Shown here: positions 26,624 to 42,215 of the stretch, one piece after another
How the letters are laid out: each line of letters opens with the position of its first letter
Position numbering within the stretch: position 1 is the first letter of the stretch
NCBI GenBank assembly: GCA_018303025.1
Contig: JAGVYZ010000014.1
Coordinates: forward strand, 21,145 to 85,144
DNA: 64,000 bases
Direction of reading: 5' to 3'
Origin: Candidatus Woesearchaeota archaeon
Lineage (GTDB): Archaea; Nanobdellota; Nanobdellia; SCGC-AAA011-G17; GW2011-AR20
The notes under the pieces: model-generated
What the model was told of the DNA's origin: nothing
What the model saw: only the letters and a program-made list of their open reading frames with translations
Databases searched by the model: none
Made by a program: the position numbers and the translations under genes

Positions 26624-27760
26624 ATGAAGATAGCGTTTGTTTGCCCGTATTATGAACCTGTTGTAGACGGACCTAAACAGGTAATTATTGAAATTGCTAA
26701 GTATTTAATTAAAGAAGGAAATGAAGTTCATGTTTACACTTCTGACTGGGATAAATATAAGAGGATAAAAGTAAAAGAAGAGGTTATTGATGGTGTTTAT
26801 GTTCATAGATGTTTTCATATTTTAAGGGTAGCTAATTTTGCAACTGTCTGGCCTTCTGTTTTTTTTAGATTGCTTAAAAATGATTTTGATATTATCCATA
26901 CTCATGTTTCTGGGCATGCTCATGTATTCTTTGCTTCTCTTGCTGCTAAATTGAAAAATGTAAAATTAGTTCATACAACTCATTGTCCATGGACAAATGC
27001 TAATAGAGGATTTATTGGAAGTTTATTGGTAAAAATAAGCTATAACACTATTAACAAATTAAGCTTTAAGTGGAGTGATAAAATAATTGCTATAACTCCT
27101 TGGGAAATTCAGTTTATTGAAAAATATGGTGGCAAAGGAAAAATAGAAGTTATACCAAATGGTGTTTCTGAGCTTTTCTTTGAAAAAGTCAAAACAAATA
27201 ATTTCAAGAAAAATTTGGGATTAAAAGGGAAATTTGTTTTATTCTTTGGAAGATTGAATGTAACTAAAGGTGTTGATAATTTAATGAAAGTTGCTAATGA
27301 GATTGTGAAAGAAAGAAAAGAGGTTAATTTTCTTTTTATTGGACCTGATGAAGGAATGAAAGATACTTTGATTAAAATGAACCAAAATAAAGAAAGAATA
27401 AAAGTTTTAGATGCTATTAAAGATAGAAAAAAGGTTAGAGAAATGTATCAAAGTTCTGAGGTATATGTTTTACCTAGCTTTAGGGAAGGAAACCCTCTTA
27501 CTTTATTTGAGGCATTTGCATCTGGTTTGCCTGTTGTTGCTTCTCCTGTAAATGGGATTCCTTTTGAAATGAATAGTGAAAATGGATTTTTAGTCGAATA
27601 TGGTGATTTAAAGAATTTGAAATTGAAAATATTGAAGATACTGGATGATGAAAAGTTAGCTTTGAATTTTTCTAAAAATAACAGAAAAAAAGCTGAAAAG
27701 TACAAATGGAATGATATTGCTAAAAAGACTGAAAAGTTGTATAAATATTTGTTAAAATGA
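26624..27760 (+). CDS. Glycosyltransferase family 4
   Basis: C-terminal motif FREGNPLTLFEAFASGLPVVASPVNGIP. Confidence 0.75.
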   Translation: MKIAFVCPYYEPVVDGPKQVIIEIAKYLIKEGNEVHVYTSDWDKYKRIKVKEEVIDGVYVHRCFHILRVANFATVWPSVFFRLLKNDFDIIHTHVSGHAHVFFASLAAKLKNVKLVHTTHCPWTNANRGFIGSLLVKISYNTINKLSFKWSDKIIAITPWEIQFIEKYGGKGKIEVIPNGVSELFFEKVKTNNFKKNLGLKGKFVLFFGRLNVTKGVDNLMKVANEIVKERKEVNFLFIGPDEGMKDTLIKMNQNKERIKVLDAIKDRKKVREMYQSSEVYVLPSFREGNPLTLFEAFASGLPVVASPVNGIPFEMNSENGFLVEYGDLKNLKLKILKILDDEKLALNFSKNNRKKAEKYKWNDIAKKTEKLYKYLLK

Positions 27761-28510
27761 TTCTGGTAAATGAAGATATTCTCCAAATGTGAAAAATCCA
27801 ATTATTTCATGATTCTTTGCAAGAATTGGAAATAAATCTTTTTCTAGGCTTTTTATGTCTTGATTCAAATAACTGAAGATTTCTTCTCTAAATAAATATA
27901 CACCTGCGTTTATTATATATGAGTTAGTTTTCTTTTTTTCCTTGAAGTTTATCACTAAATTTCCATCCAAAACAACTGAACCATATTTACTTGGAGAAGA
28001 ACTATTAATTAATCCCATATACATAATTTTGTTATTTTTCAAAAATTCATTCAACATATTTTTAAGATTAAAATTATTTAATGTGTCTCCATTAAAAACA
28101 AGAAAATTTCCCTTAATTTTTTCCTTTAATTTTGATAAGGCTAATGCATTGCCTTTATGCTCTTTTTCATAAACAAGTTCTATTAAAATTTTGTGATTAA
28201 TTTTTGAGATAATTTCCTTAATTTTTGGATTTTCTTTAGTTATTAGGTATAGCTTTTTTACACCATTTTTTTCTAAAAAATTTAAATGATGCTGCATTAA
28301 AATTAAACCATTTAAGTTTTTATTTAACAAGTCTAATGAATTTTCATGAATAAGCATCACTGCATCCAACAAAGGCCTGTTTTTGATTGATTCGTTTAAT
28401 AAGGATTCAATTGCCTGTGATCTTGAACGTATGAAATCATTATCAACATAAGAATCTATAACCTGCAATAGATTAGAATCCAGGGAGATTGCTATTTTCT
28501 CTTTTTTCAT
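27752..28510 (-). CDS. Ribbon-helix-helix (CopG-like) domain fused to a sugar-nucleotidyltransferase-like domain that lacks the N-terminal G-loop; candidate ligand-sensing regulator
   Basis: The N-terminus IAISLDSNLLQVIDSYV...RSRSQAIESLL has an RHH pattern. The remainder resembles the NTP_transferase core (VFNGDTL...AGVYLF) but has no GGxGTRL loop. Confidence 0.45.
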   Translation of the reverse strand: MKKEKIAISLDSNLLQVIDSYVDNDFIRSRSQAIESLLNESIKNRPLLDAVMLIHENSLDLLNKNLNGLILMQHHLNFLEKNGVKKLYLITKENPKIKEIISKINHKILIELVYEKEHKGNALALSKLKEKIKGNFLVFNGDTLNNFNLKNMLNEFLKNNKIMYMGLINSSSPSKYGSVVLDGNLVINFKEKKKTNSYIINAGVYLFREEIFSYLNQDIKSLEKDLFPILAKNHEIIGFFTFGEYLHLPESF

Positions 28511-28545
28511 ATATTTTACAAGATAATAAGGTTTAAATAGCTAAT

Positions 28546-28564
28546 GGTATGAACAGTTCATACC
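28546..28564. promoter_or_regulatory. Perfect 19-bp palindrome GGTATGAAC-A-GTTCATACC, a candidate operator for the adjacent RHH-domain protein
   Basis: Read directly in the divergent intergenic region. It abuts the ATG of the GHMP kinase gene and lies 36 nt from the start of the RHH-fusion gene. Confidence 0.5.
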
Positions 28565-29569
28565 ATGATAATTAAGAGCAGGGCACCAGTAAGGATATAT
28601 TTTGGAGGAGGAGGAACAGACATTTCCCCTTATACTGAAGAATATGGCGGTGCTGTGTTAAATACAGCTATTTCAAAATATGCATATACTACCTTAAGAA
28701 CAAATGAAGAGAACAAAATAGAGATTACTTCTGCTGATTATAACAAGACTATTACTGTAGACCATATAAGCCATCTTGATGCTGGAAACAATTTGGACAA
28801 TCTTGACTTAATCAAGGCAATCATTAAAAAATTTTATCCAGAATATGGATTTGAAATTTTCTTAAGAGGAGATATAATGCCTAATTCAGGATTAGGAAAC
28901 TCAGCTTCTACTGCTGTTTCAATTATTAGTCTTTTTAATTATTTAAACAAAAATAAGCTAAACAATAAACAAATTGCTGAACTTGCTTTTCAAATTGAAA
29001 CTAATGATTTGAAAAATGTAGGTGGCAGGCAAGACCAATATGCTGCAAGCTTTGGCGGCTTTAATTTAATGGAGTTTAAAGGAAATGACAATGTAATAGT
29101 AAAACAAGTAAATATCAAAAAAGAAACAGTTATGGAACTTCAAAAAAGACTTGTTCTTGCTTTTATTGGAAAAAGAGAACCATCAGGAAATATTTTAAAA
29201 TCACAGCAGGATAGTTATTCAAAAAGAGATAAAATAGAGCTTCTTGATTATTTAAAGAAGAACACTTATTTAATGCATGATTATTTGAAAGAAGAAAAAT
29301 TTGAAGAATTTGGAAAATTACTTTCAAACTCATGGGAGAAAAAAGTTGAGCTTAATCCCAACATAACTACTCAGAAAATTGAGGCACTTAGAGATATTGC
29401 AAGCAAACATGGTGCAATAGGTTCAAGAAACATGGGTGCTGGAAGAGGAGGCCATATGATTTTCTTTTGCAGAGAAGGAAGAGAACACAATGTTAGAAAT
29501 GCAATAGAACAATCTGGTGCTAAGATAGTTGATTTTAACATGGACAATGAAGGAGTGCAAGTATGGTAA
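28565..29569 (+). CDS. hddA: GHMP-family sugar kinase (HddA-like D-glycero-D-manno-heptose-7-phosphate kinase type)
   Basis: N-terminal SRAPVRIYFGGGGTD and the GHMP motif PNSGLGNSASTAV. Confidence 0.7.
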   Translation: MIIKSRAPVRIYFGGGGTDISPYTEEYGGAVLNTAISKYAYTTLRTNEENKIEITSADYNKTITVDHISHLDAGNNLDNLDLIKAIIKKFYPEYGFEIFLRGDIMPNSGLGNSASTAVSIISLFNYLNKNKLNNKQIAELAFQIETNDLKNVGGRQDQYAASFGGFNLMEFKGNDNVIVKQVNIKKETVMELQKRLVLAFIGKREPSGNILKSQQDSYSKRDKIELLDYLKKNTYLMHDYLKEEKFEEFGKLLSNSWEKKVELNPNITTQKIEALRDIASKHGAIGSRNMGAGRGGHMIFFCREGREHNVRNAIEQSGAKIVDFNMDNEGVQVW

Positions 29570-30312
29570 AGGCTGTTATTTTAGCTGGAGGAAAAGGAGA
29601 AAGATTTGGAAATATTAGTGGAGAAATTCCAAAAGTTATGGCTTCTTTGAATGAAAAACCATTACTAGAACATACTATCAATTGGCTTAAACAAAATGGA
29701 GTTAATGAAGTTGTTTTATGCACTGGATATAAAAAAGAATTTATTGAAGATTATTTTGGAAATGGAGAAAAGTTTAATGTTTCCATTAAATATTCTCATG
29801 AAGATGAACCTAAAGGAACTGGGGGAGCATTAAAATTAGCTGAAAAATATTTAGATGAAACTTTTGTTTTAATTAATGGTGATTGTTTAATCGATTGTGA
29901 TTTGAAAAAAGCAATTGAAAAACATGAGAATGAGAAAAGCATTGCTACTATTAATTTAACTGAAGCTAAAAACCCAGAACATCAGGAATTGATTAAATTT
30001 GATGATAAATTTAATGTTTTAGAAATTTTACAAAGAAATAGTGAAAAACATAAGGAGCATATGAAAAATTCTAATGAGTTATATTGTAATTCTGGATTAT
30101 TTATATTTGAACCTGAAGTTTTAAAGGAATTACCTGAAGAAGGAAAATATGCTTTAGAACCAACTTTATTTCCAAAATTATTTGAAAATAATAAAAAAAT
30201 TAAAGCGTTTTATGAAAATGGAGTCTATATTGAAATAGGAAATCCTGAATTATATAAAAAAGCAAGTGAAAATATTAATGTTAAAAAATTCTTAGAGGCG
30301 ATAGGAGAATAA
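29563..30312 (+). CDS. hddC: Sugar-1-phosphate nucleotidyltransferase (HddC-like)
   Basis: MVKAVILAGGKGERFG G-loop. 7-nt overlap with the upstream kinase. Confidence 0.7.
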   Translation: MVKAVILAGGKGERFGNISGEIPKVMASLNEKPLLEHTINWLKQNGVNEVVLCTGYKKEFIEDYFGNGEKFNVSIKYSHEDEPKGTGGALKLAEKYLDETFVLINGDCLIDCDLKKAIEKHENEKSIATINLTEAKNPEHQELIKFDDKFNVLEILQRNSEKHKEHMKNSNELYCNSGLFIFEPEVLKELPEEGKYALEPTLFPKLFENNKKIKAFYENGVYIEIGNPELYKKASENINVKKFLEAIGE

Positions 30313-30313
30313 A

Positions 30314-31360
30314 ATGTCAGAGATATATTTAGGTTTTGGAGAGAAATTAACAATTGAACAAGGAAAAGAAGGAAGAACTTTTTCATTATATTTGCCTGGC
30401 AAACCAGAAGTTAGTACAAAAGAAATAAAACCAAATCCTCATGTTTGGCTTAAAAAAATAGAGGAATTGAGAAGAACAGGAAGTGTAGAAATCTCTGGAA
30501 ATGAAACACCTGTTGTAACACATTCTGCTGGTTCAATTTCTGTTTTTTATGAAAATGGAGAAAGAAAATATGTATCTTTTTCTCAAAAAGATGAAAGTGC
30601 ACCAAGAGATCCTGGATTTAGGGTTCCGAGAAATGGATTTCCCAGTAATTCTGGAGAGTGGTTTACAAATAGACATTTATATAGAGAAAGTTGGGAAGAA
30701 GGAATCTTTTTAACAGAAGATGGAAGATTAGTCTTGCCAAAGAGTCCTATATACGATTATATAATAAAAAATGTTGCAAAAAGAATAGTAGAACAAACTG
30801 GTTTAAAGATTCGAGGAAGTAAAAGAACAAAGATAAATTTTGAAAATGGAAAAGATACGCTCGAAATTTTTTATGGACCTGAAAAAAAATGCATGTTATT
30901 TGATTATGGGGCAATTAGTTGGACACCTGAAACTGGTTTTAATTTTATAAAAGAAATGGCCGTTTATGCTCCCATCTCTGATTTAAGATTAATTGATGGA
31001 GAAACATTTCCAGATGGAAAGGTAATTGGAAGAGACATATGTATTATTGATTTAGAACAGTTGCAGGGAAAAACATTTGGAGATGAAATAGAAGAAGAAG
31101 TTCATTCTTTTAGGGATGGAAAATTTGTAAGAACAAAACGAAATTCTAGATTTTTAACCGACAGAGTACCAAGATCATTCTTAAGCTCATTAATATATAA
31201 AGGAAAACCAGTTTATCCTGCTGATGCTATTGATGAAGCTTATGCATTTGTTTCAGATGAACAGGTATTAAGAACATTTGATGAACATGAAGCCAAAGGA
31301 GAAGATCCAAATAAGTTTAAATGGTCCACTTTAGAAAGAAAATTAAGATTAGGGGAATAA
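30314..31360 (+). CDS. Hypothetical soluble protein, unknown function, inside the sugar-activation operon
   Basis: 348 aa with no TM helices. R/G/E-rich composition unlike its neighbours. Separated by only 1 nt from the upstream gene and abuts the downstream GT2. Confidence 0.5.
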   Translation: MSEIYLGFGEKLTIEQGKEGRTFSLYLPGKPEVSTKEIKPNPHVWLKKIEELRRTGSVEISGNETPVVTHSAGSISVFYENGERKYVSFSQKDESAPRDPGFRVPRNGFPSNSGEWFTNRHLYRESWEEGIFLTEDGRLVLPKSPIYDYIIKNVAKRIVEQTGLKIRGSKRTKINFENGKDTLEIFYGPEKKCMLFDYGAISWTPETGFNFIKEMAVYAPISDLRLIDGETFPDGKVIGRDICIIDLEQLQGKTFGDEIEEEVHSFRDGKFVRTKRNSRFLTDRVPRSFLSSLIYKGKPVYPADAIDEAYAFVSDEQVLRTFDEHEAKGEDPNKFKWSTLERKLRLGE

Positions 31361-32236
31361 ATGATATCAATTGTAATAACCTCATTTAAAGAACCTAAAA
31401 CAATAGGAAAAGCAATAGAAGCAATTCTAAATCAGAAGATAAATGATGATTATGAATTAATTGTTGCTGCTCCTGATGATGAAACATTAGATGTTGCTAA
31501 AAAATATAAAAAAGTTACTATTTTTAAAGATCCTGGGAAAGGAAAAAGTTTTGCCTTGAACTTATTATTTAAAAAATTAAAAAGTGATATCTTAGTTTTT
31601 ACTGATGGAGATGTTTTCTTAGGTGAAAATTCAATTAATGGAATATTAAAAATATTTGAAGATGAAAAAATAGGAGTTGTTTCAGGAAGACCGGTTTCTG
31701 ATGATAATAAAAAAAATATGTTTGGATATTGGTCTCATTTATTGTTAGATGCTGGTGCACATAATATAAGAAAGAAACTATTTACAAAAGGAAAATTTTT
31801 AGAATGCACTGGTTATTTGTTTGCTTTTAGAAACAAAATTGTTGATAAAATTCCATTAGATGTTGCTGAAGATTCTTATATTCCTTATGTTTTCTGGAAA
31901 AAGGGATATAATATAGGTTATTGTGAGGATGCTAAAGTTTACATAAAAAATCCAACTAATTTAAAAGATTGGTTAAAACAAAAGGCAAGGACTTCTAAAG
32001 CTCATGAAACATTACAACATTATGCTCCTGATTTTCCAAGAGTTAAATCTTTTACAAATGAAGTGTTATATGGCGTATTTTGGGCTTTGAGTTATCCTAG
32101 AACTATAAAAGAGTTCTTTTGGACCTTAAATTTATTTTTTATTAGATTTTATATGTGGATGTTAGTTTTTGTTGATACTAAGTTTAAGAAGAAAACTTAT
32201 AGTGATGGCTGGGAAAGAGTTGAAAGTACTAAATAA
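31361..32236 (+). CDS. Glycosyltransferase family 2
   Basis: Starts MISIVITSFKEPKTIGKAIEAIL. Has a DxD at FTDGDVF. Confidence 0.65.
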   Translation: MISIVITSFKEPKTIGKAIEAILNQKINDDYELIVAAPDDETLDVAKKYKKVTIFKDPGKGKSFALNLLFKKLKSDILVFTDGDVFLGENSINGILKIFEDEKIGVVSGRPVSDDNKKNMFGYWSHLLLDAGAHNIRKKLFTKGKFLECTGYLFAFRNKIVDKIPLDVAEDSYIPYVFWKKGYNIGYCEDAKVYIKNPTNLKDWLKQKARTSKAHETLQHYAPDFPRVKSFTNEVLYGVFWALSYPRTIKEFFWTLNLFFIRFYMWMLVFVDTKFKKKTYSDGWERVESTK

Positions 32237-32270
32237 AAAGCATTTTAAATTAGAATATTTTTAGTTATTT

Positions 32271-33803
32271 ATGACATTTGAAGAAAAAACAAGAGAATTT
32301 TTCAAAGATAAAGAAAATAGATACTTGGCTTTAATTTTGATTTTTGCTTTTTTAATAAGATTATTTTATTTCATGAAAACTTTTCAACAGCCATTATGGT
32401 GGGATGAAGCAGAATATATGTCCATGGCTAAAAGCTTGTTCTTTAATATTCCTTATGAATTTAATAGCCAAAGACCAATATTATTCCCATTATTAGAAGG
32501 AATTGTAATGTGGATATTTGCTAAAAGTGAATTTATGGTAAGATTGTTGCTTGTATTTTTGCCATCACTTGCTTTGGTTTATGTTTCATATTTATTAGGA
32601 AAAGAAATGTTTGACAAGAAAATAGGATTATTTATTGCATTTTTAACTTCTTGTTCATGGATTATCTTGTTTAATACGACAAGGATACATACTGATATTT
32701 TAGCTATGCTACTTATTTATACTGCTATTTTAATTTTATGGAAATATGTTAAAAATGAAGAGAAAAAGTATTTATGGTTGATTGGAATTTTGATTGTATC
32801 TTCTTTTATGATAAGACTGGTTTCTGCTTTAATGGGATTTGTAATTTTAATATTCTTGCTATTGATTTACAAACTTGATTTTTTAAAAGAAAAAAAATTA
32901 TGGATAGCGGTTATTCTAGGAATTTTATTATTAATGCCTTACTTAGTTTGGAGCCATTATACTTTCAATAATGCAACTGCTTTTTTATCAGGTTCTCATA
33001 TAACCAGCGGAACAGAAGGCAAATATAGTGAAATTGGATGGCATGTACTAACAGATATTTTTCCATGGTTATTTGGAATATCTCCTGGAAATTGGAATAT
33101 TACAAGTCTTAACGGATTTTTTTCAGTTATGGCATTTTTGCTATTTTTTATAGGTTTTATTTTTACATTAAGCCTGATTTTTATTAAAATTGATACTTTG
33201 ATAAAGAAAGGCAAAGAGTTTAAAGATAAAGAAAACTTGTTTTTACTATTGTGGATTATATCCTATATGGCTTTTTTTGTATTTTTAATCAAAGATGTAG
33301 AAGACAGATGGCTAATGCCTCTTGCTTTTGCTTTGTTTGCTTTAATAGCGCAAGTTGTTTTTTATATTAGGGAAGAGATTAAAAATGTTAACTTGAAAAA
33401 AGCCCTTGTTATAATTGTTTTGTTTGGATTTTTCTTTGTAAACTTTGTTACTGCTGATAATGTAATTCAAAGTAAGGTAACGAGCTATGGGCCTGTAAAA
33501 GATTCTGCATTATGGGTTAAAGAAAGAACAAATCCAGGTGATATCGTGATTACACAATCATCTACACAGTATACTTATTATGCTGAAAGGCAAATTATAA
33601 AATTTAATTCCAATGCTTCTGCATTTGAAGAAGATTTAGTTAAATATAAGCCAAAATATGTTGTTGCATCTGCATTTGAAGGTCATCCTGCCTGGGTGTT
33701 TAATTATTTGCAAGAAAATCAAAATAGATTCATAACTGTGCAGGGTTACATGATGAATGAGAACCAGCCTGCTTTAATTGTTTATGAAGTTAAATATTCT
33801 TAA
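32271..33803 (+). CDS. GT-C fold membrane glycosyltransferase (ArnT/PMT-like)
   Basis: 510 aa with more than 10 TM helices and a C-terminal soluble domain. Confidence 0.55.
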   Translation: MTFEEKTREFFKDKENRYLALILIFAFLIRLFYFMKTFQQPLWWDEAEYMSMAKSLFFNIPYEFNSQRPILFPLLEGIVMWIFAKSEFMVRLLLVFLPSLALVYVSYLLGKEMFDKKIGLFIAFLTSCSWIILFNTTRIHTDILAMLLIYTAILILWKYVKNEEKKYLWLIGILIVSSFMIRLVSALMGFVILIFLLLIYKLDFLKEKKLWIAVILGILLLMPYLVWSHYTFNNATAFLSGSHITSGTEGKYSEIGWHVLTDIFPWLFGISPGNWNITSLNGFFSVMAFLLFFIGFIFTLSLIFIKIDTLIKKGKEFKDKENLFLLLWIISYMAFFVFLIKDVEDRWLMPLAFALFALIAQVVFYIREEIKNVNLKKALVIIVLFGFFFVNFVTADNVIQSKVTSYGPVKDSALWVKERTNPGDIVITQSSTQYTYYAERQIIKFNSNASAFEEDLVKYKPKYVVASAFEGHPAWVFNYLQENQNRFITVQGYMMNENQPALIVYEVKYS

Positions 33804-33871
33804 TTAAATTTCCAGAATATATAACTAAACAGACTAAAAGTTTATAAATACTATAAGGAATATTTTAAAAA

Positions 33872-34864
33872 ATGAAATTTTCTGTTATAATCCCTGTAAG
33901 AAAGATATGTGAATATACCTATGAGGCTATTCCTTATTTTAAAGAGCAATCATACAAAGATTTTGAAATAATTATTGTATCAGAAGCAGATGAAGAAAAG
34001 AAATTCTACAAAACCAAAATAATTAAAGTTGGAAGAATTCCGCCTGCTGAAAAAAGAAATTTGGGAGCAAAATATGCAAAAGGCGAAATTCTTGCTTTTA
34101 TTGATGATGATGCTTATCCTGAAAAAGATTGGCTGCAAATTGCTTTCAAAAATTTTCAGGATAAAGAAATTATTGCAATTGGTGGACCTGGACTTGTGCC
34201 AAAAAATGCAACTTTTTTTCAAAAAATCTCAAGCAAGGTATATGACTTAAGCTCTGAAAAAACAGGCATTAGGTACAAAAAAGGCAAGAAGCAAGAAATT
34301 GATGATTGGCCTACCTGTAATTTTTTTGTAAGAAAGAATGAATTTATGAAAATTGGGGGTTTTGATTCAAAATACTGGGGTGTAGAAGACACACTCTTAT
34401 GCCATTCCCTTTCAAAGATAGGGAAAAAAATGATATATAATCCTGAATTAATTGTTTATCATCATCCAAGAAAAACTTTAAAGCAACACCTTAAACAAAC
34501 TTTCTTTTGGGGGATGTGGAGGGGTTTTTTTATAAAAAAACATTTAAATCAGGCATTTAATCCATTATTTTTTATACCTTCTGCATTTGTAATCTGGCTT
34601 ACAGCCGGAGGATTAATTTCTTTGACAAATAGATATTTTGCTGGTGTTTATTGCATATCTATTTTATTATATTTTATTTATCTCATAATAGCTGGAATAA
34701 GAACAAAAAAAATAAGTTTTTTTATACCCGTAGTGTTCTTGATGCTTTTAACTCATCTCTCTTATGGAATCGGATTTTTAAGAGGCCTATTTTCTTTTAG
34801 AAATGGTCCGACAAAACAAACTTTAAATCCTTCTGAAAAGTTAAAAATAGGGGCAAAAATATGA
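33872..34864 (+). CDS. Glycosyltransferase family 2 with C-terminal TM helices
   Basis: Starts MKFSVIIPV and has a FIDDDAYP DxD. The C-terminal ~90 aa are hydrophobic. Confidence 0.7.
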   Translation: MKFSVIIPVRKICEYTYEAIPYFKEQSYKDFEIIIVSEADEEKKFYKTKIIKVGRIPPAEKRNLGAKYAKGEILAFIDDDAYPEKDWLQIAFKNFQDKEIIAIGGPGLVPKNATFFQKISSKVYDLSSEKTGIRYKKGKKQEIDDWPTCNFFVRKNEFMKIGGFDSKYWGVEDTLLCHSLSKIGKKMIYNPELIVYHHPRKTLKQHLKQTFFWGMWRGFFIKKHLNQAFNPLFFIPSAFVIWLTAGGLISLTNRYFAGVYCISILLYFIYLIIAGIRTKKISFFIPVVFLMLLTHLSYGIGFLRGLFSFRNGPTKQTLNPSEKLKIGAKI

Positions 34865-35838
34865 AAATTAGCATAATTCTTCCCACTTATAATAATGAAA
34901 AAACAATTGAAGAATGCCTTAAAAGTATATTTATGCAGGATTTTGAAGAGAAAGAATTTGAAGTGCTTTTCATTGACGGAGGCAGTTCTGATAAAACCAT
35001 AGAAATTTCTAAAAAATTTCCAGTAGTATTTTTAAAAAATCCAAAAAGAAACGAAGAAGCAGCAAGAATTCTTGGAATAAAAAAAGCAAAAGGAGAGATA
35101 ATTACCTTCATTGATGCAGATAATGTTCTTAAAGAAAAAGACTGGCTAACTAGAATGATAGAGCCTTTTGAAGATAAAGAAATCGCTTTTGCGGATACAT
35201 TATACTTTTTTTACAGAAAAAATGACAAGATTAGAGTCAAATATCAGGCATTAATAGGAGGAGATGACCCGCTAGTTATGTATCTTGGATTTTATTCTAG
35301 ATGGTGTTATCTGAAATCAGACTGGACAGATTATCCTTATTCTTTTGAAGATAAGGGTAATTTTTTAAAAATAAGATTAAAAAACAAAAACAAAGTTCCT
35401 GCAATGGGTTCAAATGGTTTTTTAGTGAGAAAATATTTAGCAAAAATGTTGATAAGAGAAAGCTTTATTCATCCTGACTTTGTTTTTGATCTTGTCAATA
35501 ATGGGCATAATTGCTTTGCAAAAGTCAGAATAGGCATTGTTCACAATCAACCAAAATTTTTCCCAAATAAAATAAGAAGAATTAAACGAAGATTAGACAA
35601 AGAAGTAACTATGAAGTACAATTATGGTCTGACAAAAAAGAATATTATTAAAAAAATGATTTATATTGGACTGATTTTACCTGTTTTTTATGATACGATT
35701 AAAGGTTTTATCAAAAAACCTTGCTTAGCGTGGTCTTTTCATCCTGTTGCTTGTTTTGGAGAGATTTTTTTGCATGTATTTTATAATTTAAAATATATTG
35801 TAATGCCTAAATTTAAAAGAAAGGAGAACATTAAATAG
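34861..35838 (+). CDS. Glycosyltransferase family 2
   Basis: Starts MKISIILPTYNNEKTI and has a FIDADNV DxD. ATGA overlap with the upstream gene. Confidence 0.65.
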   Translation: MKISIILPTYNNEKTIEECLKSIFMQDFEEKEFEVLFIDGGSSDKTIEISKKFPVVFLKNPKRNEEAARILGIKKAKGEIITFIDADNVLKEKDWLTRMIEPFEDKEIAFADTLYFFYRKNDKIRVKYQALIGGDDPLVMYLGFYSRWCYLKSDWTDYPYSFEDKGNFLKIRLKNKNKVPAMGSNGFLVRKYLAKMLIRESFIHPDFVFDLVNNGHNCFAKVRIGIVHNQPKFFPNKIRRIKRRLDKEVTMKYNYGLTKKNIIKKMIYIGLILPVFYDTIKGFIKKPCLAWSFHPVACFGEIFLHVFYNLKYIVMPKFKRKENIK

Positions 35839-40074: not shown

Positions 40075-40905
40075 TTATAGTTTTAGAATATTATTTAAAT
40101 CTTTCTTCAGATCAGAAGAGATTTTACAAGGATTATTTTTTAAAATGCTTATCCTATCAATATCTAAACCATCTACATCAAAGGGCAAGATTATCTTAAA
40201 GAATTTCAACAAAAACATAGGAATGTGTACTTTAATGCACCAAGAATTGCTTTTTTCAGCCAAATAATTGCTTATTTCATTTAATGAAATTGTTGTTTTA
40301 CCAGATAAATCAAATGTTGATTTTGCTTTGAAATGTTCAACAAGAAAAACAACTGTTTTAGCAATATCCTGTTTATTAACTGGTTGAATATTTGTATTTC
40401 CCCTGCCATATATTGGGCAAATATGCATATTTTTTATTATTATGCTTAATTTGTAAAAGTCATTTTCCTTATCAATACCATATACATAGTTAGGTCTTAA
40501 AATAATGTAATTTAAATTACTATTAACCAAAAGTTTTTCACATAATTTTTTTGAGTTACCATAAGGCCCTGTTTTTTTAAGATAAACATTCTGAGTTGAA
40601 AAATAAATTATATTTGTTATTTTATTTAATTTCATGGATTCTAAGGTATTACTTAGACCTATAATATTTTGATTATATTTTGATTTTTTTATTGTTCTTA
40701 TTACTGCAGCTAGATAGATAATTAAATCAAAGCCTTTGATTTTTTTTATTAACTCTTCTTTGTTTAAAATATTGCAAGAAATAACATCTTTTTTAACTGA
40801 TCTTGATAATATTGTTACATTATAGTTTTTACTAATTAATTCTTTAACAATTTCCTTTCCGATATAACCGGAACCACCTATAACCAAAATTCTCTTATTT
40901 GCCAT
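40075..40905 (-). CDS. NAD(P)-dependent epimerase/dehydratase (SDR)
   Basis: N-terminal ILVIGGSGYIGKEIV Rossmann motif and YGNSK catalytic dyad. Confidence 0.65.
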   Translation of the reverse strand: MANKRILVIGGSGYIGKEIVKELISKNYNVTILSRSVKKDVISCNILNKEELIKKIKGFDLIIYLAAVIRTIKKSKYNQNIIGLSNTLESMKLNKITNIIYFSTQNVYLKKTGPYGNSKKLCEKLLVNSNLNYIILRPNYVYGIDKENDFYKLSIIIKNMHICPIYGRGNTNIQPVNKQDIAKTVVFLVEHFKAKSTFDLSGKTTISLNEISNYLAEKSNSWCIKVHIPMFLLKFFKIILPFDVDGLDIDRISILKNNPCKISSDLKKDLNNILKL

Positions 40906-42215
40906 TTTAAAAATTTGAATAAGTATGAGATTCTAAAATAATAATTTCTATATGCTTTATCCAGTAATTTTTGCACTTGTTTTGGAGAGAAATTGTTATG
41001 TCTGTAAACTAAATTAAACTGTGTATATTTCTCAAAATCATAAGTTAATATTCTGTTTTCTTTTTCCAATTGATTAAAAAAACCAGTTCCAGGATATGGT
41101 GTTGAAACTGAAAATCTAGCTATTAAGGTGTTTAATTTTTTTGCATAATTTATAGTATTTTTTACTGTTTCCTCAGTATCGCCTTCATATCCTAAAATAT
41201 AAAATGCTGAAATTTTTACACCAATTTTTTCACAAAATTTTATGATATTCTCCTGATGATTTTTTTGTATTAAAAGTCGTTTATTTTTTTTTGCTATATT
41301 AATATCGTTGGTTTCAATGCCTACATTGATATTTCTTAAGCCAACTTCAAACATTTTTTTAATTTTTTCTTCGTTTAGCAAGTCTAATCTTGTTTCCATG
41401 CCCCATTTAATGTTTACATATGTTTCTTTTAATTCTTTACAAAAATCTTCAATAAAATTAGGAATTAATCCAAATGTTGGATCTCTAAATTGGATTCCTT
41501 TTATATTATACTTTTTTTGCAAATAAACTATGTCCTTTACAATCTTTTTAACAGATCTTAATCTTACTTTAGAACCTTGATATTCGCCATAAGTACAATA
41601 AAATCTACAACTATAAGGGCAGCCTCGACTTGCTTGTAAAACTAAGAATGGTTTTTGTTTTATTGCTGGAAAATAACTATAACTGTTTATTGGAAAATTA
41701 TCAAAAGAAGGTAAAGGAAGATCATCTAAATCTATTTTTTCAGAAACAGTTATATGACCCTGCAATTGATTTTCACTTTTAAATTTGTATATAAAAAAAT
41801 ACTCTGATTCCCCACAAATGTTGAAATCTCCTGATTTGAACAAATCAGGCTTTATTTTTACAAATGGGCCAAAAAATCCAATTTTTGATTTAGGAAATGT
41901 TTTTTTTAAGACCTGACAGACTTTATTTTCGTTTTTGTAATCAACAATAGTACCATAGATTAAAATCAAATCAAAATATGTTTCAGGCAATTTACCTTCA
42001 AAATAACTTACTTCATAGCCTTTTTCTTTAAAAATCTCCTGTAAATAAGCTATTTCTATAACTGGTAATTTAATTGAATTTTTTTTGATAAATCTTAAAA
42101 TTTTGGATGTAAATGAATAACCATAATCATCTGCAGTCCCAAAACCACCATTTAGGTCTTTATTCATTGCAAAATTTTTACTTTTATTCATTACATTAAT
42201 CAATGCTATTTTCAT
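40878..42215 (-). CDS. Cobalamin-binding (class B) radical SAM enzyme
   Basis: Radical SAM cysteine motif SRGCPYSCRFYC. The N-terminal half is consistent with a B12-binding domain. Confidence 0.75.
   Translation of the reverse strand: MKIALINVMNKSKNFAMNKDLNGGFGTADDYGYSFTSKILRFIKKNSIKLPVIEIAYLQEIFKEKGYEVSYFEGKLPETYFDLILIYGTIVDYKNENKVCQVLKKTFPKSKIGFFGPFVKIKPDLFKSGDFNICGESEYFFIYKFKSENQLQGHITVSEKIDLDDLPLPSFDNFPINSYSYFPAIKQKPFLVLQASRGCPYSCRFYCTYGEYQGSKVRLRSVKKIVKDIVYLQKKYNIKGIQFRDPTFGLIPNFIEDFCKELKETYVNIKWGMETRLDLLNEEKIKKMFEVGLRNINVGIETNDINIAKKNKRLLIQKNHQENIIKFCEKIGVKISAFYILGYEGDTEETVKNTINYAKKLNTLIARFSVSTPYPGTGFFNQLEKENRILTYDFEKYTQFNLVYRHNNFSPKQVQKLLDKAYRNYYFRISYLFKFLKWQIREFWL

Follow-up and report, generated by a model that had tools for sequence, protein, structure and literature searches.

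The stretch of DNA analyzed here, a 64-kb window (64,000 nucleotides; G+C content of 25-30%) of a contig from a Candidatus Woesearchaeota archaeon (GenBank JAGVYZ010000014.1; positions below count from the first letter of the window), encodes on its reverse strand a putative regulator in which a ribbon-helix-helix (RHH) DNA-binding domain is fused to a pseudo-nucleotidyltransferase. The gene occupies 27752..28510 (252 amino acids plus stop codon), and its product, which begins MKKEKIAISLDSNLLQVIDSYVDNDFIRSRSQAIESLL, is 100% identical to hypothetical protein J4405_01330 of Candidatus Woesearchaeota archaeon. It diverges from an HddA-like kinase gene that opens an operon on the forward strand, and a 54-bp divergent promoter region (28511..28564) is common to both. 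A sequence-only reading of the window had described the RHH-like N terminus, the altered enzyme domain and a palindrome beside the kinase start codon; its coordinates and sequences are exact, and each element it described is present. The case it had raised against itself, an ordinary complete nucleotidyltransferase with a mis-called start, does not hold. A mis-called start is ruled out because MKKxKIAISLD, with which the family begins, is the consensus N terminus of 115 homologues, so the regulator start is correctly called.

Residues 1-45 (28376..28510, reverse strand) make up the RHH domain, which is laid out as a β-strand (KIAISLD) followed by helix A (residues 12-21) and helix B (residues 30-43), the helices being taken from an AlphaFold2 model. 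A profile of the N-terminal 48 residues of the family has E. coli NikR (1q5v; E = 0.0068) as its best match in the PDB, followed by an RHH antitoxin (E = 0.018), and PF01402 (RHH_1) is matched by 24 of 27 family N termini, with a best E value of 3.5e-6. In the hidden Markov model alignment, K5, A7 and S9 of the regulator fall on NikR R3, T5 and T7, which we take to be the base-contacting residues of the strand. The strand and helix B (RSRSQAIE) are nearly invariant in the family, making the RHH the best-conserved part of the protein; KIAIS is likewise nearly invariant across the loop-less subfamily described below. The CopG/RHH-like pattern proposed for the N terminus is borne out by the PF01402 matches and by NikR as best structural match, and, judged from these profiles, the N terminus of the 252-aa protein is a NikR-like RHH. 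Dimerization through an antiparallel β-ribbon lying in the major groove is proposed only, the AlphaFold2 model being a monomer.

The rest of the protein, residues 46-252 (27755..28375, reverse strand), has a nucleotidyltransferase (NT) fold and is the putative sensor. PF00483 (NTP_transferase) covers residues 71-224, equivalent to profile positions 33-197 of 245 (E = 7.8e-18); the neighboring true enzyme, a paralogue encoded at 29563..30312, covers profile positions 1-242. The paralogue sequence LAGGKGERFGNISGEIPK aligns with LIHEN, a 9-residue gap and SLDLLNK of the regulator, and in a direct alignment AVILAGGKGERFGNISGEIPKVM of the same enzyme faces AVMLIHEN, the 9-residue gap and SLDLLNK. 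The segment that stands in place of the catalytic G-loop and PK motif (residues 54-66; 28313..28351, reverse strand) is therefore nine residues shorter than in the paralogue and has no GGxGxR. By alignment and Pfam comparison, both the GGxGxR(L/F) signature and the downstream PK lysine of PF00483 enzymes are absent from the regulator. When a profile of the 115 homologues was compared with PDB structures, all alignments started at about query residue 65 and enzyme residue 27, so that the G-loop region has no detectable homology. Conservation in the family is also lowest at residues 54-66 (mean top-residue frequency of 0.53), where members of the subfamily read IHENSL, LKGEHQ, ISENDQ and others.

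The AlphaFold2 model, built on the 115-sequence alignment (predicted local distance difference test score [pLDDT] of 89.0; predicted template modeling score [pTM] of 0.80), shows an extended N terminus, the RHH helices, a lower-confidence linker and then a complete NT fold, with a short helix (residues 56-63) at the expected place of the G-loop. Foldseek searches with this model returned guanosine diphosphate (GDP)-mannose pyrophosphorylase (7x8k; E = 5.3e-18, TM score of 0.71), HddC (5xhw; E = 1.2e-13), entries of the GMPPA/GMPPB complex and ST0452, and the regulator profile also matched HddC in the PDB (E = 5e-17). Against the HddC equivalog NF049965 the regulator scored 49.3 bits over profile positions 33-180 only, and the curated cut-off of 300 was not reached. 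The domain likened earlier to sugar-1-phosphate nucleotidyltransferases, and the absence from it of the catalytic GGxGTRL loop, thus both stood up, and the structure prediction that the sequence-only reading had suggested gives a confident NT fold with a helix instead of the loop.

The motifs of the substrate pocket are retained. G120-x-A122, G141-D142-T143, E191-K192, N201-A202-G203-x-Y205 and E223-x-D225 are invariant or at least 90% conserved in the 115 sequences, S221-L222-E223-x-D225 is nearly invariant in the family, and the first four sets of residues align with the G-x-A/G, GD, EKP and NAG motifs of VTC1 and GMPPB. On this alignment, GxA, GDT, EK, NAGxY and ExD are the counterparts of the residues that line the nucleotide-sugar pocket of the enzymes (base, ribose, phosphate and sugar). 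The 252-aa protein is, as far as such comparison goes, a pseudo-enzyme with its pocket under selection, fused to a DNA-binding domain; we class it as a pseudo-enzyme and not as a transferase because it fails the catalytic GGxGxR...PK signature. Databases name members of the family sugar phosphate nucleotidyltransferase, mannose-1-phosphate guanylyltransferase or hypothetical protein, and such enzyme-like annotation over-counts enzymes and conceals a regulator.

Genomes of 232 species carry full-length relatives of about 250 aa, and the family comprises about 45 clusters at 50% identity. Gene neighborhoods were counted at the 80 best loci (designated by L numbers), all of them in Woesearchaeota or Nanoarchaeota metagenome-assembled genomes (MAGs), with operon genes typed by Pfam and NCBIfam in L036 and L009 and by tblastn across loci. 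At about 50 of the 80, the regulator gene is divergent from a complete adenosine diphosphate (ADP)-heptose operon in the order gmhA (TIGR00441, above cut-off), an HldD-type epimerase or a GSU2086-family protein, rfaE_dom_I heptose-7-phosphate kinase (hldA), gmhB and rfaE_dom_II heptose-1-phosphate adenylyltransferase (hldC), and a GT9 heptosyltransferase gene lies elsewhere in 52 of the 80, mostly downstream of the regulator. At L005, L011, L013 and L054, as well as at the closest relatives L092 and L093, the divergent operon instead encodes an HddA-type GHMP kinase, GmhA, GmhB and an HddC-type transferase, so that in the window's own clade the regulator is partnered with an HddA/HddC (GDP-heptose type) operon. 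Regulators beside HddA-type operons form one clade in a neighbor-joining tree, apart from the ADP-type regulators, and the two groups differ consistently at the pocket-adjacent positions T/N121 (in G-x-A), N/S140 (before GD) and S/R170. The sequence-only reading had supposed feedback control of a glycan island: a regulated operon there is, but the conserved regulon is a nucleoside diphosphate (NDP)-heptose biosynthesis operon and not a generic glycan island.

Within the ADP-type operons, the slot between gmhA and the heptose-7-phosphate kinase gene is filled by an HldD-type NAD epimerase in about 25 loci and by a deoxyhypusine-synthase-like GSU2086-family protein (NF052581, 421 bits) in 25 others (e.g., L036:4394-5302 and L009:3406-4308, both on the reverse strand). 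The two never occur together in one operon (L009-L079), and the GSU2086-family protein may, on this pattern of occurrence, be a non-orthologous replacement of the ADP-heptose 6-epimerase. Many contigs with the regulator and the heptose operon are titled "uncultured Methanosarcinales archaeon" (L004, L009, L015, L017, L020, L021 and others); they derive from binchicken or SRP co-assembly MAGs, and their taxonomic labels look wrong.

In the window, the divergent operon begins with a GHMP-family sugar or sugar-phosphate kinase gene (28565..29569, forward strand; Pfam GHMP_kinases_N and GHMP_kinases_C). Its best NCBIfam match is HddA (NF049969; E = 3e-68, full length, 231 bits, below the equivalog cut-off of 600), and its description as HddA-like in the earlier reading holds in that sense. 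Orthologues of this kinase with 41-46% identity adjoin gmhA and gmhB in L005, L011, L013 and L054. The second gene (29563..30312, forward strand) encodes a complete HddC/ManC-like sugar-1-phosphate nucleotidyltransferase with an intact G-loop (PF00483 positions 1-242; E = 2.1e-33), which matches man1P_GTase, Arch_glmU and HddC in NCBIfam, all below cut-off.

The candidate operator upstream of this operon is a 23-bp perfect dyad, ATGGTATGAAC-A-GTTCATACCAT, at 28544..28566, with 11-bp arms; it overlaps the A and T of the kinase ATG and contains a conserved core, GTATGAA-CAG-TTCATAC, at 28547..28563. The palindrome first noticed here, GGTATGAAC-A-GTTCATACC at 28546..28564, directly before the kinase ATG at 28565, is present as described and its 19 bp are perfect, but the true dyad is longer; likewise, the 9-bp half-site proposed with it is real, but the actual unit is the heptamer GTATGAA/TTCATAC. 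Two palindromes in the window are perfect over arms of 9 bp or more with 4 or more G/C in each arm, compared to an expectation of 0.17 when its 28% GC sequence is Markov-shuffled, although conservation in other genomes is a stronger argument than such chance statistics. The only other such palindrome, CCTGATTTGAACAAATCAGG at 41830..41849, lies within a 445-aa open reading frame (ORF; 40878..42215, reverse strand) and is probably coincidental. Searches of the 64-kb window with the 9-mer half-site and with the 17-bp dyad (up to 3 mismatches) found other copies only at chance level, and the further half-sites that the sequence-only reading had proposed to look for did not appear there beyond chance.

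Across the related loci the distribution is very different from chance. With up to 2 mismatches allowed, the core was counted 65 times in the DNA up to 250 bp upstream of the regulator genes (19.4 kb in all, 80 loci) versus 12 times in the other 800 kb, an enrichment of about 220-fold, and it is found upstream of the regulator in 57 of the 80 loci. Most of the 12 outside copies stand exactly at the gmhA start in L024, L029, L047, L063 and L067, where another gene lies between regulator and operon; the site thus follows the heptose operon, since loci with a displaced regulator keep it at the operon start. When 48 loci were aligned on the dyad and oriented to the operon, a B recognition element (BRE) and TATA box (cgaaagATTTATAAATA) stood 2-14 nt upstream of the dyad, and 3′ of it came either the start codon directly or a GGTG ribosome-binding site and ATG, placing the operator between TATA box and operon start (transcription starts being inferred). 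The dyad arms do not vary among these loci; the central triplet does. The orthologue closest to the regulator is P0002 (83% identity; locus L091, spacer of 56 bp, kinase identical at 58 of 64 N-terminal residues), and there CATGGTATGAA---TTCATACCATTAGCTATTTAAACCTTATTAT, which takes in the operator and the TATA box, differs from the window in the central triplet alone. The palindrome, whose absence from orthologous loci would have counted against it as an operator, is therefore kept with identical arms in L091, and across the loci examined, site and regulator gene are found together. The operator candidate put forward in the sequence-only reading turns out to be conserved, in sequence and in its place at the operon start, in dozens of genomes.

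The heptamer also connects the site to the RHH head. The E. coli NikR operator is GTATGA-N16-TCATAC, with an experimentally established half-site (PMC7055735), and the enterobacterial NikR consensus is GTATGAT-N13/14-ATCATAC (PMC545781). The regulator half-site is the same GTATGA/TCATAC, with the hexamers 5 bp apart versus 16 in NikR, so that the spacing differs by 11 bp. That the closest characterized relative of the RHH head uses the same half-site argues that head and half-site belong together.

A search of 1.84 billion representative proteins returned 230 clusters at an E value of 1e-30 or lower, almost all of them full-length RHH-NT fusions, of which the top 45 or so constitute the loop-less KIAIS subfamily. 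In most of the other clusters the strand reads R-[IVL]-T-[IVL]-T, like that of NikR, and the G-loop ranges from intact to absent, with many partly eroded intermediates. An intact loop is seen in P0194 (ILAGGKGTRLRPFTYEMPKPM) and also in P0180, P0197, P0207, P0216, P0239 and P0249; these sisters match PF00483 over its full length and adjoin phosphoglucomutase or phosphomannomutase genes. Intact-loop sisters are about 270-285 aa long with GGxGxRL...PK, examples being P0180 (L084-L086), P0249 (L088 and L089), P0194 and P0216. From their motifs and neighbors it is plausible that the intact-loop sisters are candidate bifunctional enzyme-repressors. Two of four sister promoters (L088 and L090) have a TATA box and then TCATAC-N4-TCATAC directly before the ATG, L084 has no TCATAC repeats, and L087 has TATTAC repeats. 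Because L088 and L090 carry the repeats, TCATAC-repeat recognition appears wider than the loop-less subfamily, and the loop-less heptose branch appears to be the derived state within this series.

Between the two genes of the window lies a TATA-box-like element, TTTAAATA, preceded by AAGG, at 28532..28539; the kinase ATG is 25 nt away on one strand, the regulator ATG 21 nt away on the other. The element fits (C)GAAAG(G/A)TTTAAATAG, which precedes the operators of related loci. No Shine-Dalgarno sequence is visible in 28511..28564, and the usual archaeal TATA-to-start distance would make both transcripts near-leaderless. One quasi-symmetric TATA box is probably used both ways, giving near-leaderless divergent mRNAs. 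In most relatives, unlike the window, the spacer is about 120 bp long and contains two TATA boxes along with a GGTG ribosome-binding site.

The regulator promoters of the family have a second kind of site, two to three direct repeats with a 10-bp period directly after the TATA box, as in GTAATAC-N3-TACTAC-N4-TCATACC-ATG and TTCATAC-N3-TTCATAC. TCATAC lies within 45 nt of the regulator ATG in 42 of 77 loci compared to 1.2% of background windows, and a 10-bp-phased direct repeat is found in 36 of 77 loci compared to 0.19% of background. The presence of the operator unit in this position suggests that the regulator is most likely autoregulated.

Sequence comparison shows the domain make-up, the missing loop, a conserved operator with its position, and the association with NDP-heptose operons. 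From these we consider it likely that the window protein is a one-component transcription factor, namely, an autoregulated repressor of NDP-heptose synthesis with a dead NT as its sensor and the pathway product as the likeliest co-repressor. Under this proposal, the NikR-like RHH would dimerize, and each heptamer in GTATGAA-N3-TTCATAC would be bound by one RHH dimer; with hexamer centers 11 bp apart, the two dimers would lie in adjacent major grooves on the same side of the DNA. Protein bound between the TATA box and the kinase start could then block recruitment of RNA polymerase and so repress the operon. Blocking of recruitment is a classical mode of repression in archaea. The same complex would autoregulate, because the dyad adjoins the TATA/BRE region on the regulator side.

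We speculate that the sensor descends from a sugar-1-phosphate nucleotidyltransferase that lost its triphosphate-binding loop and kept its nucleotide-sugar pocket. The pocket could hold the NDP-heptose product or a heptose phosphate, and its occupancy would alter affinity for DNA; end-product feedback, with the product as co-repressor, seems to be the likeliest and most economical logic. Four features together suggest that the effector is the pathway product or a heptose phosphate: the pocket has been kept, the triphosphate loop has gone, the genes are linked exclusively to NDP-heptose operons, and GMPPA (see below) sets a precedent. CMP-phosphonate, named earlier as a possible ligand, found no support. 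A broader claim is possible, but we would lean slightly against it: that in the loop-less branch NDP-heptose synthesis has its first known transcriptional feedback regulator from any domain of life, one that senses the product by means of a dead pathway-type enzyme; that its superfamily (about 230 clusters at 50% identity, DPANN) records step by step how a self-regulating sugar-activating enzyme became a pure sensor; and that the NikR half-site has been reused at half the NikR spacing.

Several points weigh against the proposed repressor. Everything said here on DNA binding by the window protein, on how it oligomerizes, on the sign of regulation and on the ligand and what it does is inferred. 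The window regulator's own N terminus has no Pfam RHH match above threshold, so that its RHH assignment rests on the family. About 22 of the 80 loci are without the dyad at up to 1 mismatch; some of these are on truncated contigs, and others have variants such as GTATTC-N4-TTCATAC or GGTATG direct repeats. When metagenome contigs were scanned blindly with the 17-mer pattern, 120 stretches matched, of which 110 were unrelated chance matches; ten lay beside heptose genes, five of these with the regulator as well, a result that is weakly consistent with an operator. No gmhA, gmhB, GT9, pfkB-type heptose kinase or HldC gene was found by tblastn in the 64-kb window, so the heptose assignment of its operon rests on orthologues; the missing gmhA and gmhB may lie elsewhere in the genome, or the operon may activate a different sugar. 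HldC, the last enzyme of the ADP-β-heptose route that most members would control, has a different fold, so that the ligand could be a shared intermediate, and binding of ADP-β-heptose by an HddC-like pocket is not self-evident. Finally, the co-segregation of regulator clade and pathway type could reflect organismal phylogeny alone.

The alternative that survives best, although we think it unlikely, is the opposite logic, in which a precursor or intermediate (sedoheptulose-7-phosphate, heptose-7-phosphate or heptose-1-phosphate) acts as inducer by releasing the repressor or in which the protein is an activator of its own gene. The ADP-type and GDP-type routes, which have only early intermediates in common, are both served by one regulator family, and relative to the regulator gene the window site is upstream of the TATA box, a position compatible with activation. 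The GxA and GDT motifs, which hold the nucleotide, are nevertheless kept, favoring an NDP-sugar over a bare sugar phosphate; the clade-specific changes beside the pocket motifs track the type of nucleotide route; and anabolic pathways are usually controlled by their end products.

Less probable still is a ligand-independent regulator whose NT-like domain is just an oligomerization scaffold placing a pair of RHH dimers on the dyad. Dimers and tetramers are common among NT-fold enzymes, and the dyad would require such a pair, but a scaffold has no need for the substrate-pocket residues E191-K192, N201-A202-G203-x-Y205, G141-D142 and E223-x-D225 at a conservation of 90% or more. It is very improbable that the window protein is a bifunctional enzyme-repressor, in the manner of BirA, NadR or PutA, that still makes an NDP-sugar. 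The sister fusions with an intact GGxGxRL...PK loop, full-length PF00483 matches and phosphomannomutase neighbors lend this idea some appeal, but in the window's subfamily the loop is shortened by nine residues, variable and without the catalytic Arg and Lys, and a complete paralogue is encoded two genes away.

Least probable of all is that the palindrome is not the regulator's site but that of another factor, an RNA hairpin masking the kinase start codon or a product of chance: the transcript could form a 10-bp hairpin (-11.4 kcal/mol) and the pattern does occur by chance in unrelated metagenome contigs, but the hairpin does not exceed shuffled sequence in stability (z = -1.27, on which ground we rejected the RNA reading), the arms are conserved without compensatory changes while the loop triplet varies, the same heptamer recurs in regulator promoters as direct repeats that are unable to fold, and the site both co-occurs with the regulator gene and fits the half-site of the closest characterized RHH protein.

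Compared to known systems, the proposed repressor is most like NikR, the nickel repressor of E. coli and archaea (PDB models 1q5v and 2hzv). The RHH domains are alike (QRVTITLDDDLLETLD...NRSEAIRDIL in NikR and EKIAISLDSNLLQVID...RSRSQAIESLL in the regulator), as are the C-terminal ligand-sensing and oligomer-building domain (proposed for the regulator), the promoter-overlapping repressor site and the GTATGA/TCATAC half-site. NikR differs in having an ACT-like nickel-binding tetramerization domain where the regulator has an NT fold, in an N16 spacing compared to N5, which brings the regulator half-sites one helical turn closer, and in its nickel ligand; for the regulator, the ligand is presumed to be a sugar nucleotide, the promoter is an archaeal TATA/BRE promoter, and the target is a heptose operon. 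Because the sensor fold differs, the regulator is not a NikR.

On the sensor side, the closest parallel is GMPPA (PDB models 7d72-7d74), the inactive paralogue of GDP-mannose pyrophosphorylase, which has the same NT fold, is also a pseudo-enzyme and matched the regulator both in Foldseek and by sequence profile. GMPPA is a product sensor for feedback in a nucleotide-sugar pathway. It contacts the enzyme GMPPB, has a C-terminal left-handed β-helix and lacks a DNA-binding domain, whereas the regulator would act on transcription. HddC, the D-glycero-α-D-manno-heptose-1-phosphate guanylyltransferase (PDB models 5xhw and 6jq8), shares the fold and is an enzyme of the regulated pathway, but it has the catalytic G-loop and no RHH. 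In PutA (RHH plus proline dehydrogenase), BirA and NadR, a DNA-binding domain is fused to an enzyme of the controlled pathway, an arrangement that fits the intact-loop sisters near phosphomannomutase genes; these proteins are active enzymes, whereas the window subfamily is without the catalytic loop.

In archaea, TrmB and TrmBL1 respond to sugars and repress from sites downstream of the TATA box; in bacteria, the ROK/NagC, RpiR-SIS and SorC regulators have enzyme-derived sugar sensors. All of them share with the proposed repressor the logic of a repressor that keeps RNA polymerase from being recruited and is controlled by a small molecule through a sensor derived from a sugar enzyme, and all differ in having winged helix-turn-helix or helix-turn-helix DNA-binding folds and other sensor folds. 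To our knowledge, none responds to NDP-heptose.

Our literature searches turned up no study of RHH-NT regulators or of how archaea control NDP-heptose synthesis at the transcriptional level, no dedicated regulator of an NDP-heptose pathway and nothing relevant on heptose in Woesearchaeota. Both the sensor module and the regulon would be new for a ligand-responsive RHH repressor, which would still be conceptually continuous with known one-component regulators. NDP-heptoses are precursors of cell-surface glycans and potent agonists of innate immunity, and, as far as we know, the transcription factors of DPANN archaea are almost entirely uncharacterized. The archaeal enzymes of NDP-heptose biosynthesis have been recognized only recently (commentary on Tang et al., PMC11461863). 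For this regulator the protein family, the conserved operator, the regulon and a few candidate ligands can all be named, and the graded loss of the loop among the fusions makes a clean natural case of an enzyme becoming a sensor. It could serve as a scaffold for nucleotide-sugar biosensors and, if true, would surprise specialists in archaeal transcription and in glycobiology.

Beyond the kinase and the transferase, the window operon probably continues in the same direction (30314..35838, forward strand; assigned by ORFs and Pfam) with ORF4 (348 aa), a GT2 gene, a PMT_2-like gene of 510 aa and two further GT2 genes, gene calls and Pfam matches having been mapped back onto window coordinates from the identical contig L081; tight gene spacing is the reason for counting these genes in the operon. 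ORF4 (30314..31360, forward strand) has no match in Pfam, in NCBIfam or by sequence in the PDB, is not present in the 80 related loci and is not homologous to the first gene of the L092/L093 operon.

Two minor observations concern single contigs. A 1.3-kb metagenome contig without heptose genes (L192:122-962) consists over this range of about 20 tandem copies of a 42-bp unit, each centered on the extended palindrome GATTTGTATGAACTCTTCATACAAATC, which contains the 17-bp pattern. The regulated operon of L092 contains a B12-binding radical-SAM gene of 906 aa (L092:4089-6809, reverse strand) with Intein_splicing and LAGLIDADG matches, which is an intein-containing version of a 456-aa gene in L093.

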